In this document: positions 30,009 to 34,632 of the stretch, piece by piece
Layout: every line of letters starts with the position of its first letter
Numbering within the stretch: the stretch's first letter is position 1
Assembly (NCBI GenBank): GCA_038214535.1
Contig: JBBQRS010000001.1
Span: forward strand, 32,620 to 96,619
From: Anaerolineae bacterium
GTDB taxonomy: Bacteria; Chloroflexota; Anaerolineae; CG2-30-64-16
Direction of reading: 5' to 3'
DNA length: 64,000 bases
Notes under the pieces: generated by a model
Database searches by the model: none
What the model was told of the DNA's origin: nothing
Seen by the model: only the letters and a program-made list of their open reading frames with translations
Program-made: the position numbers and the translations under genes

Positions 30009-31034
30009 CTACCACCCGCGCGCATATTGGAACGGGACGGGCGCTTGCTGACCCAATTCACGCGCGGCGCGCAACGGCCAGTAGGCATCGCGTAATGACT
30101 CGCGGGCGATCAGGACGGCGTCGGCGCGGCCCTCTCGCACAATGTCATCCGCTTGCCCCGGCTCGGTGATCAGGCCAACAGCTGCGGTGGCGATGCCCGC
30201 CTCACGCCGGATGCGCTCTGCAAAGGGGACCTGGTATCCAGGCCCGATGCGCACCTGTTGTTCGGGCGCTACGCCGCCCGATGAGCAGTCTATCAGGTCT
30301 ACGCCGGCCAGCCGCAACAGGCCGGCCAGCGCGACGCTTTGTTCGAGGTCCCATCCGCCGGGGATCCAATCGGTCGCGCTGATGCGCACGAAGAGCGGGA
30401 GATGTTCGGGCCATACGTTGCGTACTGCGTTCGTCACCTCGAGCAGCAGGCGCACCCGGTTACGGAAATCGCCGCCATAGGCGTCGGCGCGCTGGTTGCT
30501 GATAGGCGAGAGGAACTCGTGTAGCAGATAGCCGTGCGCGGCGTGAATTTCCAACGCCTGAAAACCGGCTTCGGTGGCCCGGCCGGCGGCGTCACGAAAT
30601 GCCCGCACGACCTCAGCGATGTCGTGTTGAGACATCTCTTCGGGCGCAGCCATCTGGGGCGAGAACGGGCTGGGGCTGGGGCCGATTGCGCCGGGCACAC
30701 TCGCCTTGCGCCCGGCGTGGGCAATCTGAATGGCCGGGACCGCGCCATGTTCCACGAGAAAGCGGACGATAGGCATAAAAGCTTCCGCCTGAACGTCGTT
30801 CCACAGGCCCAGGTCTTCGGCGCTGATCCGGCCGCGCGGTTCGACCGCCGTCGCTTCAACGATGATGAGCCCCGCGCCGCCCACCGCGCGGCTGCCAAGA
30901 TGTACCAAGTGCCAATCCGTGGGCGCGCCATCTTGCCGGAAGATCGAATACTGGCACATGGGTGAGATCCAGATCCGGTTGCGCGCCTCGATCTCTTTCA
31001 GGCGATAGGGGGTGAAAAGATGAGTTTCTGTCAT
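30009..31034 (-). CDS. NADH:flavin oxidoreductase / Old Yellow Enzyme (YqjM/NamA class)
   Basis: SPMCQYS, AHAGRKAS, HAAHGYLLHEFLSP and PFQYARGW. Confidence 0.92.
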   Translation of the reverse strand: MTETHLFTPYRLKEIEARNRIWISPMCQYSIFRQDGAPTDWHLVHLGSRAVGGAGLIIVEATAVEPRGRISAEDLGLWNDVQAEAFMPIVRFLVEHGAVPAIQIAHAGRKASVPGAIGPSPSPFSPQMAAPEEMSQHDIAEVVRAFRDAAGRATEAGFQALEIHAAHGYLLHEFLSPISNQRADAYGGDFRNRVRLLLEVTNAVRNVWPEHLPLFVRISATDWIPGGWDLEQSVALAGLLRLAGVDLIDCSSGGVAPEQQVRIGPGYQVPFAERIRREAGIATAAVGLITEPGQADDIVREGRADAVLIARESLRDAYWPLRAARELGQQAPVPFQYARGW

Positions 31035-31035
31035 G

Positions 31036-32766
31036 TTATAAGGTCGCGATCATGTAGTGGTCGCCGCGGCGAAAACCGAGGCGTTCGTAGTAACGTCGTG
31101 TGCCGATGGCCGAGATGACGGCGAGGCGGTCGAAGCCGGCGGCACGGGCTACGCGCCCCGCCTCGTCTGTCAGCCGCCGCCCCAGGCCGAGATGCTGGGC
31201 CTCGCCGCTGCTGGCCCCGCCGATGCCGAGCGCCGGGCCGTAGACGTGAACCTCGCGGATCATGGCCGCGCCCGCGATTTCGGGCAGCACCGTCCACACT
31301 TCGTTCGTTTCGCGGGCCGCGGCGACGTTCGGTAACGACAGGCGCAGGAAACCGGCCAGCCCGCCGTCCTCGGTGTCGAAGCTCAAGAAGTGTTCGGTCG
31401 TCGTGTCCGTGTCATAGACGTAATCGTTCAGATGCAACCCCTCTGTCGCAACCTCGGTCGCGCGCACCTCGCGGCAGCGGATGCAGCCGCACGCCCGGCC
31501 CGTCGCAGTCAGGTGCTCGACCACGAGTTGACGCAGGTTAGAGCGGGTGCTGCCTGCCACGATGTCGTCGGCGGGGATGTCGCGGAACACGCGGTTGACG
31601 CGGCAATAGGGCGGGATGATCGTCTTGCAGTCGGCCACCAACGCCACCAGTTCGTCGTCGGTGTAAGGCCGAAAGCCGCCGCTGCGCCAGATGTCATACA
31701 GCCCCGTGCCCCCGATGATGGAGCAGGGATAAATCTTTAGCTCATCAGGTCGGATCGCAGGGTCGGACCACAGGCGGGCGAAGTCTTCCCGGTCGGATGC
31801 GGGCGTCGCGCCCAGCAGGTTGGGCATCCAGTGCAGGTGGAGCTTGAAGCCCGCGGCGCGCAACAGGCGCACGGCCCGGCGCACCTGCTCCACGTCGTGG
31901 CCGCGTTGGTTCAGCGCAAGAATGTCGTCATCGAGGCTCTGTACGCCAAGCTGCACTTTAGTGACGCCCAGGCTGCGCAGATGGCGAATTTCATCCGGCG
32001 TCACCCAGTCCGGGCGCGTCTCGATGACCAGCCCCACGTTGCGGTGGGCGGCCGTTTCGTTAAGCGTCTGGGCTTCCTGCAAACTCGCCGCGGGTGTGTG
32101 ATCTTCTGTGCTGCCCTGGGCGTTCATCGCATCCAGACAGCGCCGGACGAACTCCTCGCGATACCGGCGCGAGTAGGCGCTCCACGTGCCGCCGAGGATC
32201 AGCAGTTCGACCTTCTCTGCGGTATGGCCCATTGTTTCGAAGGCGCTCAGGCGGGTGCGGACCTGAAGGTAGGGGTCGAAGCCACATTGCGCGGCGCGGC
32301 GCGCGCCCGGTTCGTTGGGCAGATAGCTCTTGGGCATCTCTTCGGCGTCGGGGCAGAAAATGCAATGTCCCGGACAACCCGCGGGTTCGGTCAACACGGT
32401 GACCGGCGCAACCCCCGAAGAGGTGCGGACGGGCTTGAGTTGCAACCGGCGCAGCATCCAGGGTTCAAACGGGATGGTCCCCTCCTCGGTGAGCTGATGA
32501 TAACCCTTGACCAACTCGATCTTCGAAAAGTAGCCGTTGCCGCCGCGCGGGTGCTGTGCTATGATCGCCATCAGGGCGTCCTGGTTCCACGCGTCGTCGG
32601 CCCGCACGGCCTCGAAGATCGCCATTAGTGATTCCCGATGATCCTGGGCGTCGAAGCCGACGCCGCGCGGCCGCCACGGCTTGCCCGGCGCGGATTCGAT
32701 CTTCACGGCATCGTTTGTGTCGGGATTCGTATATTCGTTGTTCCCGGTTACAGGGTTAACTTCCAT
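31036..32766 (-). CDS. elp3: Elp3-family tRNA uridine(34) carboxymethyltransferase (radical SAM plus acetyl-CoA-binding KAT domain)
   Basis: KPVRTSSGVAPV, CPGHCIFC (CxxxCxxC), PKSYLPNEPG, ETRPD, KIYP, CIRCRE, REVHVYG and QHLGLG. Confidence 0.93.
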   Translation of the reverse strand: MEVNPVTGNNEYTNPDTNDAVKIESAPGKPWRPRGVGFDAQDHRESLMAIFEAVRADDAWNQDALMAIIAQHPRGGNGYFSKIELVKGYHQLTEEGTIPFEPWMLRRLQLKPVRTSSGVAPVTVLTEPAGCPGHCIFCPDAEEMPKSYLPNEPGARRAAQCGFDPYLQVRTRLSAFETMGHTAEKVELLILGGTWSAYSRRYREEFVRRCLDAMNAQGSTEDHTPAASLQEAQTLNETAAHRNVGLVIETRPDWVTPDEIRHLRSLGVTKVQLGVQSLDDDILALNQRGHDVEQVRRAVRLLRAAGFKLHLHWMPNLLGATPASDREDFARLWSDPAIRPDELKIYPCSIIGGTGLYDIWRSGGFRPYTDDELVALVADCKTIIPPYCRVNRVFRDIPADDIVAGSTRSNLRQLVVEHLTATGRACGCIRCREVRATEVATEGLHLNDYVYDTDTTTEHFLSFDTEDGGLAGFLRLSLPNVAAARETNEVWTVLPEIAGAAMIREVHVYGPALGIGGASSGEAQHLGLGRRLTDEAGRVARAAGFDRLAVISAIGTRRYYERLGFRRGDHYMIATL

Positions 32767-33496
32767 GGATCAAACCACCTGCACGGCGCTCGCACAGCTC
32801 AACCGTGCGTTTTATGAAGACTTCGCGGAAGATTTCGCCGATACCCGGCGCGGCTGGCTTCCCGGCTTCAATCTCATTTTACCGCACATTGAAGCGGCGG
32901 CCAACGTCCTCGACCTGGGTTGCGGCAACGGTCGTTTTCTGAGCTTCCTGGCGGAGCGTGGCTGGCGGGGCGTCTATACCGGCGTGGATCAGGGCGAAAG
33001 GCTGCTGCATATCGCCGCTTCCGCCGCCGCAGCGCTGCCTTCCGGCATCGAAGCCCGGTTCGTGCGGGCCGATCTGTTGCGCCCGGACTGGTTGGCTGCG
33101 TCCGGGCTGTCAACCGCCGATGCCGTGGTCTCTCTGGCCGTGTTGCACCACATCCCCGGCCGTGAGAATCGCGCGCGCTTCCTGGCGCAGTGTCGTGCTC
33201 TCACGACGCCTGATGGCGTCGTCATCCTTTCGACGTGGCAATTCCTCGAATCACCCCGTTTGAGGGCGCATATCCTGCCGTGGCGCGCTGCGGGCTTCAC
33301 GGATGCGCAGGTCGAGCCGGACGATTATCTGCTGGGATGGGGACAGGGCAACGCCGGCCGGCGCTATTGCGCCTGGATCGGGCGTGAGGCGTTGGATGAA
33401 CTGGCCGCAGAGGCCGGCTTGCGTCCCGTGGCGCACCACACGGGCGATGGTCGCGAAGGAAATCTCAACCTGTACGGGGTGTATGCTCCGGTGTGA
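32765..33496 (+). CDS. Class I SAM-dependent methyltransferase, Trm9/ALKBH8-MTase-like
   Basis: FY..FA..F..TR, LDLGCGNG, SLAVLHH, STW, DYLLGW, RRY and a C-terminal N; start set at ATG 32765. Confidence 0.8.
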   Translation: MDQTTCTALAQLNRAFYEDFAEDFADTRRGWLPGFNLILPHIEAAANVLDLGCGNGRFLSFLAERGWRGVYTGVDQGERLLHIAASAAAALPSGIEARFVRADLLRPDWLAASGLSTADAVVSLAVLHHIPGRENRARFLAQCRALTTPDGVVILSTWQFLESPRLRAHILPWRAAGFTDAQVEPDDYLLGWGQGNAGRRYCAWIGREALDELAAEAGLRPVAHHTGDGREGNLNLYGVYAPV

Positions 33497-33507: not shown

Positions 33508-34632
33508 TCAACGCCACGCGAAATGATGCTGCGCGCTGACCGGGCTGGACGCATCGCCGGGATTATCTTCGCCGCCCTGGCGCACCTGCACCTGCCACGT
33601 GAACTCGGTGGGCGCCTGGCTCTCCACGCGGTACTCCGCCGGCAACCGCCATGAAGTCGTTTTGGTCCAATAGGGCGGGATGGTCTGGTCCACTTCCACG
33701 GCTTTGACCGTCACCACGTACCATTCGTCTGCCGCCAACGAGCCGGTTGCGGCCCACGTGAGCAACACCGCGTTGTTGCCGATGAGGATGGCCCCGTCAG
33801 CGGGCGCAAGCAGGGTTGGCGCGGGCAGTCGCGGCCCGACTGTCGGTTCGGGCGTCGGCGTGTTTTCCGGCGTGGGGATGGGCGCCGGCGTGCTGGCGCT
33901 GAGCGGGACCAGCAGGGGACGCCCGATGTGCAACACCTCGCCCGGCTTGATGTTGTTGGCTTCCATGATCCAGTTCATCTGCGAACTGTAGCGCACAGCG
34001 ATGGACGAGATGGTGTCGCCGGACTGCACCACGTACATCAGCGCGCCCCCCTCCGCAGTGGCTGTAGGGCCGGGGCCGCCGCTGGGGCCGGCGATGGGAA
34101 TCAACAACTCTTGTCCGATGCGCAGGAGGCCGTTGGCCTTCATACTGTTGGCGTCTGCAATATCTTTGACGCTCGTGTTGTAGGCCGCGGCAATGGCGAT
34201 CAGGGTGTCGCCCGGTTTGACGGTGTGCTTGACCGGCTCGGAAGGCGCGGTGGGGGTGGGCGTCTCGGCGGCCGGCCGGGTGGCCGATGGGCGTGGCGTG
34301 GTCGTCGGTGTCGCAGTATAGACGGTTGTTTCGTTTACCGGCTCACCGGTGGCCGTGGCCGCCACGCGTGTGGCGCTCTGGCTGACCAGAGAGATGCGCT
34401 GCCCATTCGGCGCTTCGGGGGCGCGTGTCCACCAGAGCGCGATCAAGCCGCCAATCACCGAGAAGAGGATAATATCGGCCCAGGGTATCGCGAAGCGGCG
34501 GCGCTTCGGCGTGATTTGCAGCGAAGCCCCGCAATTGAAGCAGGTAGATGCTCGTTGAGCGACCCGCGTGCCGCAGTGCTGACAGAGGCGCTCACGACCA
34601 TATGCCGATCGAGGTGCATCGGGAGAATTCAT
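33508..34632 (-). CDS. Membrane-anchored protein: zinc ribbon, TM helix, two LysM domains and a C-terminal beta domain
   Basis: CQHC...CFNC; TM helix; HTVKPGDTLIAIA and YVVQSGDTISSIA LysM repeats. Confidence 0.85.
   Translation of the reverse strand: MNSPDAPRSAYGRERLCQHCGTRVAQRASTCFNCGASLQITPKRRRFAIPWADIILFSVIGGLIALWWTRAPEAPNGQRISLVSQSATRVAATATGEPVNETTVYTATPTTTPRPSATRPAAETPTPTAPSEPVKHTVKPGDTLIAIAAAYNTSVKDIADANSMKANGLLRIGQELLIPIAGPSGGPGPTATAEGGALMYVVQSGDTISSIAVRYSSQMNWIMEANNIKPGEVLHIGRPLLVPLSASTPAPIPTPENTPTPEPTVGPRLPAPTLLAPADGAILIGNNAVLLTWAATGSLAADEWYVVTVKAVEVDQTIPPYWTKTTSWRLPAEYRVESQAPTEFTWQVQVRQGGEDNPGDASSPVSAQHHFAWR

Follow-up and report, generated by a model that had tools for sequence, protein, structure and literature searches.

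The window, by which we mean the whole 64,000-nucleotide stretch of DNA analyzed here, comes from contig JBBQRS010000001.1 of an Anaerolineae bacterium (phylum Chloroflexota; assembly GCA_038214535.1), whose genome is a 227-contig draft with a marker-gene completeness of 99.9%. It carries two divergently transcribed genes: elp3, encoding the radical S-adenosylmethionine (SAM) enzyme Elp3, and a gene for a class I SAM-dependent methyltransferase that resembles Trm9, the carboxyl methyltransferase of 5-carboxymethyluridine at tRNA position 34 (cm5U34). Our comparisons show, as far as sequences speak, a widespread bacterial family that has the Trm9 active-site pattern, is locked to full-length Elp3, and is never found together with the tRNA-modification enzyme MnmG in the genomes sampled. 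The locus is laid out as follows.

31036..32766, minus strand: elp3, long-form Elp3 (radical SAM plus KAT/GNAT acetyltransferase domains), 576 amino acids (aa); assigned by TIGR01211, the match to 5l7j, and an AlphaFold2 (AF2) model
32765..33496, plus strand: class I SAM methyltransferase, Trm9-like, with 243 aa counted from the ATG; assigned by Pfam, profile A2 (described below), and an AF2 model
32764..32767, both strands: overlapping divergent start codons (CATG), read from the junction sequence

An earlier reading of the region, made from the letters alone (the sequence-only reading), had placed the two open reading frames (ORFs) here, head to head, and we confirmed this arrangement: the junction reads CCATGG, in which the start codons of elp3 (ATG, 32766-32764) and of the methyltransferase gene (ATG, 32765-32767) overlap by 2 nt. 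The identical overlap recurs in four related loci (L025, L027, L028, and L030), which supports both of the assigned starts. Eight nt upstream of the elp3 ATG, the minus strand has a Shine-Dalgarno-like AGGTGG. An alternative methyltransferase frame starting from TTG 32681 would add 28 residues that are common to no homolog.

Conservation of the pair and distribution of MnmG

We followed the pair through 41 genomes of relatives (own genome included; methyltransferase orthologs called at >150 bits), 151 evenly drawn Chloroflexota genomes (own genome again included; methyltransferase called at an E-value of 1e-35 or better), and species-level loci of the best 80 of 455 confirmed relatives. The sampled genomes are kin, so counts taken from them are non-independent; they are descriptive and do not amount to a statistical test. 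Among the relatives, 26 of 41 have a methyltransferase ortholog, namely, the host genome itself, 23 of the 24 same-family genomes, and two genomes from other families, and the sole same-family genome lacking one is 63% complete. In every one of these 26 carriers elp3 adjoins the methyltransferase gene on the same contig, on the opposite strand and divergently oriented. At the species level, 59 of the 80 loci have elp3 upstream of the methyltransferase, diverging from it at a distance of up to about 2 kb, and the record labels of these 59 include Myxococcales (L078, L098), Pseudomonadales (L083, L092), Acidobacteriota (L088), and Candidatus Pacebacteria (L079). Three of the remaining 21 loci have <600 nt of upstream flank, and in the genomes with non-adjacent loci that were checked, an Elp3 over the cut-off is encoded elsewhere (10/10). 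The genes that flank the pair in the window are not conserved around it in the 80 loci. Within the phylum sample the methyltransferase is present in 17 genomes, all 17 of which encode Elp3, on a shared contig in 14 cases; lineages with the pair include closed, single-contig genomes (G083, G116, and G134). The co-occurrence and synteny with elp3 that the sequence-only reading had anticipated are thus borne out.

The usual bacterial pathway to modified 5-methyluridines at this position (xm5U34) is that of MnmE and MnmG (with MnmC), which acts on the same target nucleotide and has the same codon-reading role (PMC7663514; here and below, statements from papers cited by PMC number draw on excerpts of their text), although its enzymes and chemistry are unrelated to those of the Elp3 pair. 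In the own genome neither MnmG (best score 52.8 bits vs. a cut-off of 525) nor MnmE (129 bits vs. 253) was found over its cut-off. The genome does encode the thiolation enzyme MnmA (348 bits vs. 237). Elp3 and MnmG never occur together in either sample, as the sequence-only reading had foreseen in proposing an anti-correlation: the 41 relatives include 28 genomes with Elp3, seven with MnmG, none with both, and six with neither, and the corresponding numbers for the 151 Chloroflexota genomes are 30, 73, 0, and 48. Two of the 73 MnmG-positive genomes (G078 and G184) are flagged unpublished, which affects only the count of 73 and not the exclusivity.

As a separate observation in the phylum sample, Elp3 of Chloroflexota comes in two forms, one of 458-518 aa in genomes without the methyltransferase (e.g., G061 and G136) and one of 550-671 aa in genomes with it (e.g., G083 and G116). 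Two full Elp3 copies, each in a frame of 564 aa, lie on separate contigs of G195, the genome of locus L056.

The two proteins

Judged by its sequence, the Elp3 of the window is a genuine and intact member of its family. It scores 488 bits against TIGR01211 (curated cut-off 350), covering profile positions 53-519 of 522, and its best sequence match in the PDB is Dehalococcoides mccartyi Elp3 (DmcElp3, 5l7j; E-value 1.2e-107), in an alignment that reaches residue 572; the next solved relatives are, in order, the enzymes of M. infernus, mouse, human, and yeast. The radical SAM and KAT motifs, on which the sequence-only reading had called the protein a complete Elp3, are invariant in our alignment A3 of 52 orthologs. 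The Pfam GNAT models taken alone stay below their cut-off on this protein (19.2 vs. 20.7). Its features are the following.

32353..32376, minus strand: radical SAM [4Fe-4S] motif C131-x3-C135-x2-C138 (CxxxCxxC), invariant in 52 orthologs
31180..31197, minus strand: KAT acetyl-CoA motif Q524 H525 x G527 x G529, invariant in 52 orthologs and aligned to 'aqhrglgr' of DmcElp3
32437..32664, minus strand: N-terminal helical module, residues ~35-110, four helices by AF2 model and superposition

The sequence-only reading had further described an N-terminal extension of roughly 110 residues preceding the KPVRT motif. The residues are there, ~105 of them before KPVRT, and hidden Markov model (HMM) and PDB matches begin only at residues 97-112; what does not stand is their reading as an addition. 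In the AF2 model (mean predicted local distance difference test score, pLDDT, of 88.9), residues 1-28 are predicted to be disordered and are followed by helices at 40-56, 62-71, 82-94, and 102-109 with pLDDT of about 88-96, and this module is conserved in the 52 orthologs. The best match in a VIA-align search is yeast Elp3 from the tRNA-bound Elp123 complex (8asw_C; Z 49.6, root-mean-square deviation [rmsd] 3.4, 497 residues aligned), with model residues 39-576 aligned to chain residues 18-557; tRNA-bound human Elp3 (8ptx_C; Z 44.8, 498 residues aligned) superposes from model residue 41, equivalent to chain residue 13. Apo archaeal, Dehalococcoides, and other eukaryotic Elp3 entries align from model residue 110-118 only. 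Since the superposition with the tRNA-bound enzymes of yeast and human starts at residue 39-41, the predicted structure indicates that the 'extension' is the counterpart of the canonical archaeal and eukaryotic Elp3 N-terminus, and that the Dehalococcoides enzyme is a truncated outlier. The Elp3 N-terminus binds tRNA and is absent from DmcElp3, which binds tRNA weakly (PMC6367351). Although DmcElp3, the characterized bacterial Elp3, comes from the same phylum and is the best PDB match, it differs from the 576-aa long form of the window, and the 13 genomes of the phylum sample with DmcElp3-like short forms have no methyltransferase ortholog at an E-value of 1e-35 or better. The archaeal N-terminus is described as basic in PMC6367351; residues 29-110 of the window protein differ in this respect, with 10 basic residues and 11 acidic ones.

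We also asked whether the N-terminus might be a domain that specifically docks the methyltransferase, an idea that we rejected given the superposition of this region on the canonical eukaryotic N-terminus; the idea is countered as well by two genomes, G033 and G039, that carry long Elp3 ORFs and no methyltransferase. A complex prediction for full Elp3 and the methyltransferase from separate alignments scored 0.00 in both runs and is uninformative either way.

The methyltransferase belongs to a family of 1,213 cluster representatives at an E-value of 1e-30 or better. We built a profile, A2, from 70 diverse orthologs taken from species-level genome records, with 33%-60% identity to the window protein, and searched it against 177,635 PDB sequences. 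Its top match is Trm9 of Yarrowia lipolytica (5cm2_Z; E-value 1e-13, 54.2 bits), and the match spans profile positions 25-223, corresponding to chain residues 2-181 of 205. All four of the remaining A2 alignments that were printed break off around profile position 156, where the SAM-binding half ends, so that Trm9 is the sole one of the five to run through the substrate-binding half. The Yarrowia strings TR, GCGNG, IAVIHH, YVW, DVMVPW, and RYYH appear in this HMMER alignment, and the strings that the sequence-only reading had quoted for the window protein are all present. The motifs of the window protein are located as follows.

32813..32848, plus strand: N-terminal helix motif Y17...T27-R28 (FYEDFAEDFADTR); Y17 and R28 invariant in 70 sequences, TR aligned to TR of 5cm2_Z
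32912..32932, plus strand: SAM-binding motif I, D50-L-G-C-G-N-G56, aligned to VDIGCGNG of Trm9
33146..33151, plus strand: H128-H129, equivalent to H115-H116 of Saccharomyces cerevisiae Trm9; H129 invariant, H128 variable
33236..33370, plus strand: substrate-side residues W158, D187, W192, R200, Y201, and C202, placed by alignment to 5cm2_Z

Residues D50, G52, C53, G54, and N55 of motif I are invariant in the 70 sequences, as is D187, which aligns to an Asp of Yarrowia Trm9. Counting along the alignment of A2 with 5cm2_Z, and using the S. cerevisiae (Sc) and Y. lipolytica (Yl) numbering given in PMC4678810, we obtained the following equivalences.

Yl R40 = Sc R29 = window R28; invariant in 70 sequences
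Yl D83 = Sc D72 (acidic SAM-binding residue) = window D75; at least 90% conserved
Yl H126/H127 = Sc H115/H116 = window H128/H129
Yl W156 = Sc W145 = window W158; invariant in 70 sequences
Yl W179 = Sc W168 = window W192; invariant in 70 sequences
Yl R192 = Sc R241 = window R200; invariant in 70 sequences
Yl Y193 = Sc Y242 = window Y201; at least 90% conserved

These residues can be set against the mutants of Trm9 described in excerpts of PMC4678810. There, R29A, D72A, H116A, W145A, W168A, and R241A are inactive or at least ten-fold impaired, with ~95% of activity lost in R29A, and H115A is tolerated. Of the eight positions at which mutation impaired Trm9, six match invariant or near-invariant columns of the bacterial family, and the His equivalent to the tolerated H115 is the variable one (H128; Q-H in Caldilineaceae sequences). 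Y17 sits 11 residues before R28, with the same spacing as Sc Y18 and R29; this comparison is of spacing alone, as Y18 lies outside the crystallized construct.

Family members also vary in their domains. In P0141 and P0145 the two methyltransferase halves are separated by an inserted DUF559 (Vsr-like endonuclease) domain, and in P0157 (429 aa) a GNAT acetyltransferase domain is fused to the C-terminal side of the methyltransferase. Six further members (P0128, P0140, P0148, P0175, P0186, and P0210) share a conserved N-terminal domain of about 65-70 aa with the pattern ...VEI...W..G.V..HD.PGVWV...DGR.WFVTN..IR. Searches of this domain returned no Pfam match, no Trm112 domain, and no Zn-knuckle cysteines, and on its sequence it is not Trm112-like. 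Neither ALKBH8-type long forms nor fusions to Elp3 were found among 7,996 scored candidates, which is weak evidence.

A candidate two-gene route to mcm5U34

We consider it probable that the divergent pair constitutes a two-gene pathway from cm5U to 5-methoxycarbonylmethyluridine and its 2-thio derivative (mcm5U and mcm5s2U, together mcm5(s2)U) at position 34, in which a Trm9 working independently of Trm112 acts in place of MnmE and MnmG. In such a pathway, Elp3 alone, through its radical SAM and acetyl-CoA (KAT) domains, would carboxymethylate C5 of U34 to give cm5U, as its family membership suggests; that Elp3 alone forms cm5U34 has been established for the archaeal enzyme (as cited in PMC7663514). 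The bacterial Trm9 relative would then esterify the carboxylate of cm5U with SAM to give mcm5U, a step that we infer because R28, H129, W158, W192, and R200 are conserved and the linkage to elp3 is strict. H129 and R28 would position the carboxylate, as has been proposed for Trm9 (PMC4678810). More speculatively, MnmA, which is encoded elsewhere in the genome, could add the 2-thio group to form mcm5s2U on some tRNAs. The sequence-only reading, which had proposed a two-gene mcm5(s2)U module, is thus supported and appears to be largely right.

The Trm112 activator is probably dispensable for this methyltransferase, to judge from gene content. The sequence-only reading had noted that the window lacks a Trm112-like ORF, and this extends to the genome as a whole: no match to Trm112 (PF03966) was found in the entire 99.9%-complete assembly, and this is why we propose independence of Trm112. 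In the own family, eight of 24 carriers (own genome counted) have no Trm112 match at an E-value of 0.001 or better, so the methyltransferase family cannot depend on Trm112 everywhere. Most of the other own-family matches are short and lie inside ORFs of >400 aa; small-ORF matches near the cut-off occur in five genomes (G006, G009, G014, G015, and G024). Strong Trm112-like matches are present in the pair-carrying genomes G031 and G038, and equally strong ones in genomes without the pair. In some species, the methyltransferase may have a Trm112 partner.

Trm9 (the yeast and Yarrowia Trm9-Trm112 complex, 5CM2) and the corresponding domain of ALKBH8 share the common class I SAM fold with the window methyltransferase. 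They are further alike in the family's conserved counterparts of R29, D72, H116, W145, W168, R241, and Y242, and in the link to Elp3. The window system differs in having a bacterial host and a genome without a Trm112 match, in a Cys (or Val) where Sc has Y243, in a sequence similarity to Trm9 that is below single-sequence detection, and in the divergent coupling of the methyltransferase to elp3 through overlapping start codons. The archaeal systems (Sulfolobus solfataricus, and Haloferax volcanii with HVO_1032-Trm112) resemble it in having Elp3 without the other Elongator subunits, and in Sulfolobus the elp3 and trm9 genes are clustered (PMC6144793, PMC5372719). Archaeal Trm9, however, is described as a partner of Trm112 in excerpts of these papers, and our comparison with it is by description.

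Several observations weigh against the proposed pathway or its Trm9 step, in addition to the kinship of the genomes counted. Thirteen of the 30 Elp3-positive Chloroflexota genomes lack the methyltransferase; these genomes are of 1.4-2.4 Mb and their Elp3 frames are short (458-518 aa). Among the relatives, G033 and G039 likewise have no ortholog despite their long Elp3 frames, and it follows that Elp3 does not require the methyltransferase. In the active site, the column of Sc Y243 (Yl Y194) holds C202 in the window protein and Cys in the majority of the family, with 'v' in the HMM consensus, and the equivalent of Sc N271 lies beyond the end of the HMMER alignment, where the last strand has a majority Asn (N235). 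Of the draft's 46 tRNA genes, two for Arg(UCU) and those for Lys(UUU), Gly(UCC), and Leu(UAA) speak for the pathway; on the other side, tRNA-Glu(UUC) and tRNA-Gln(UUG) were not found in the draft, and neither was tRNA-Phe, so the tRNA set is incomplete.

Most searches with the methyltransferase also fail to single out Trm9. Pfam returns generic models only (Methyltransf_23, 25, 12, and 11), none of which names Trm9, and no NCBIfam model comes near its cut-off (best 37.5 bits vs. 180). A single-sequence search of the PDB puts UbiG-like chains at the top and 5cm2_Z far down the list (E-value 0.042), a profile of 34 close homologs places Trm9 at rank 10 (E-value 1.2e-6), and the C-terminal half searched alone gives nothing significant and no Trm9 match. 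With the AF2 model (pLDDT 92.5), the top Foldseek matches are CcbJ, CypM, and TylM1, and a wide VIA-align search ranks RdmB first (Z 20.3) and Trm9 50th (5cm2_Z; Z 17.1, with 172 of the chain's 184 residues aligned at rmsd 3.2); the model resembles many class I methyltransferases about equally, so neither program discriminates among them. Even profile A2 prefers Trm9 by only ~3 bits over its runner-up (51.1 bits). In the ESM Atlas we found only Chloroflexota and Actinomycetota methyltransferase clusters, with generic names. The resemblance to Trm9 claimed by the sequence-only reading therefore stands for the diverse profile and the active-site residues but not for single-sequence, Pfam, NCBIfam, or fold searches, and the identification of the methyltransferase as a Trm9 relative is drawn from two sources only, the diverse profile and the gene context.

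These observations leave room for readings other than an mcm5U pathway. The methyltransferase could be tied to Elp3 and yet catalyze a different reaction, on another atom of a 5-carboxymethyluridine-type (xcm5U) side chain, on another nucleotide of the same tRNAs, or on Elp3 itself, so that the product would not be mcm5U. Gene linkage is silent on chemistry, and the lack of conservation at the Sc Y243 position, together with the non-specific fold and single-sequence searches, fits this possibility, as does a genome without a Trm112 match when eukaryotic and archaeal Trm9 are described with Trm112 (PMC5372719, PMC6144793). Still, the six residues that Trm9 needs on cm5U-tRNA, among them the proposed carboxylate-holding His and Arg, fall in invariant or near-invariant columns here, and we regard a different reaction as unlikely. 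We know of no other Elp3 product that accepts a methyl group.

It is harder to sustain that the enzyme is an unrelated small-molecule or protein methyltransferase that sits beside elp3 by chance or through shared regulation only. The generic Pfam and NCBIfam matches (e.g., UbiG, 36.6 bits vs. a cut-off of 103), the natural-product methyltransferases at the top of the Foldseek and VIA-align lists, and the label benzoquinol methylase that the Joint Genome Institute (JGI) gives to six of 120 listed homologs speak for this reading; against it, adjacency is kept across phyla while the flanking genes change, Elp3 accompanies all of the carriers checked (17/17 and 10/10), and the diverse profile finds its best PDB match, and its only printed alignment through the substrate-binding half, in Trm9. 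We consider such an accidental association quite improbable. Least credible to us is an Elp3 that does not modify tRNA U34 at all and serves some other process with its partner, for instance, as a protein acetyltransferase. The sub-threshold GNAT matches allow it, and the role of Elp3 here is itself assigned by inference, but the full-length TIGR01211 match, the invariance of the radical SAM and KAT motifs, a fold that nearly coincides with that of tRNA-bound Elp3 down to the N-terminal tRNA-binding region, and the mutual exclusion with MnmG, which fits a role at U34, make it very improbable. Excerpts of PMC6367351 further describe tRNA as the only trigger for Elp3's activity across the three domains of life.

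A broader proposition is that a large Chloroflexota clade, together with scattered bacteria from further phyla, has swapped MnmE and MnmG for a self-sufficient module of long-form Elp3, Trm112-free Trm9, and MnmA, and carries mcm5U and mcm5s2U; here we find ourselves evenly divided. To our knowledge, mcm5U and mcm5s2U have been reported from eukaryotes and archaea only and not from bacteria. In its excerpts, a 2017 review states that no bacterial genes significantly similar to those for the eukaryotic methyltransferase partners of Trm112 were detectable, and that archaeal Trm9 orthologs are limited to Sulfolobales and Halobacteriales (PMC5372719). Those of a 2020 review confine bacterial Elp3 to Dehalococcoides and describe xcm5U in bacteria as lacking direct evidence, the organisms being hard to grow (PMC7663514). 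Elp3 is ascribed to 'numerous bacteria' in a 2026 paper, the excerpts of which have Trm9 in the reference list only (PMC13315578). A full-text literature search, with subscription journals and supplements outside its reach, returned no description of a bacterial Trm9. The sequence-only reading had known of no characterized bacterial Trm9 step; the link is not wholly unseen: the JGI label 'tRNA (uracil-5-)-methyltransferase TRM9' is attached to 20 of the 120 listed homologs, the remainder beyond the six benzoquinol methylases being generic or unnamed, in an output that gives no basis for the names.

Should the broader proposition be correct, bacteria would carry mcm5U and mcm5s2U, and the methyltransferase would be the first Trm9 to act as one polypeptide chain. 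Whether mcm5(s2)U occurs in bacteria and whether Trm9 is active without Trm112 become directly testable questions, for which a single-chain Trm9 would be a simpler model enzyme. Further, the existence of short- and long-form Elp3 provides a naturally occurring contrast for studying what the Elp3 N-terminus does.

Surroundings of the pair

Consensus matching found three sigma-70-like sites in the region, against 0.6 expected. Two of these are candidate promoters of the pair, each lying within the ORF of the opposite gene.

32876..32904, minus strand: sigma-70-like site upstream of elp3, within the methyltransferase ORF; weak, consensus match only, 9/12
32537..32565, plus strand: sigma-70-like site upstream of the methyltransferase, within the elp3 ORF; weak, consensus match only, 9/12, with a TG preceding the -10 element

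On the elp3 side, an NADH:flavin oxidoreductase of the Old Yellow Enzyme (OYE) type (PF00724; E-value 2.7e-67) is encoded at window positions 30009-31034 on the minus strand; its gene begins 1 nt past the elp3 stop and is probably co-transcribed with elp3. We considered this flavin reductase as a partner supplying reductant to Elp3 and rejected it, since the adjacency is kept in just three of the 80 loci. On the other side, convergent with the methyltransferase gene, window positions 33508-34632 (minus strand) encode a protein that combines a zinc ribbon with two LysM domains, a neighbor that is kept in six of the 80 loci, all of them close relatives. Elsewhere, the own genome includes a gene for tRNA-SeC(UCA).

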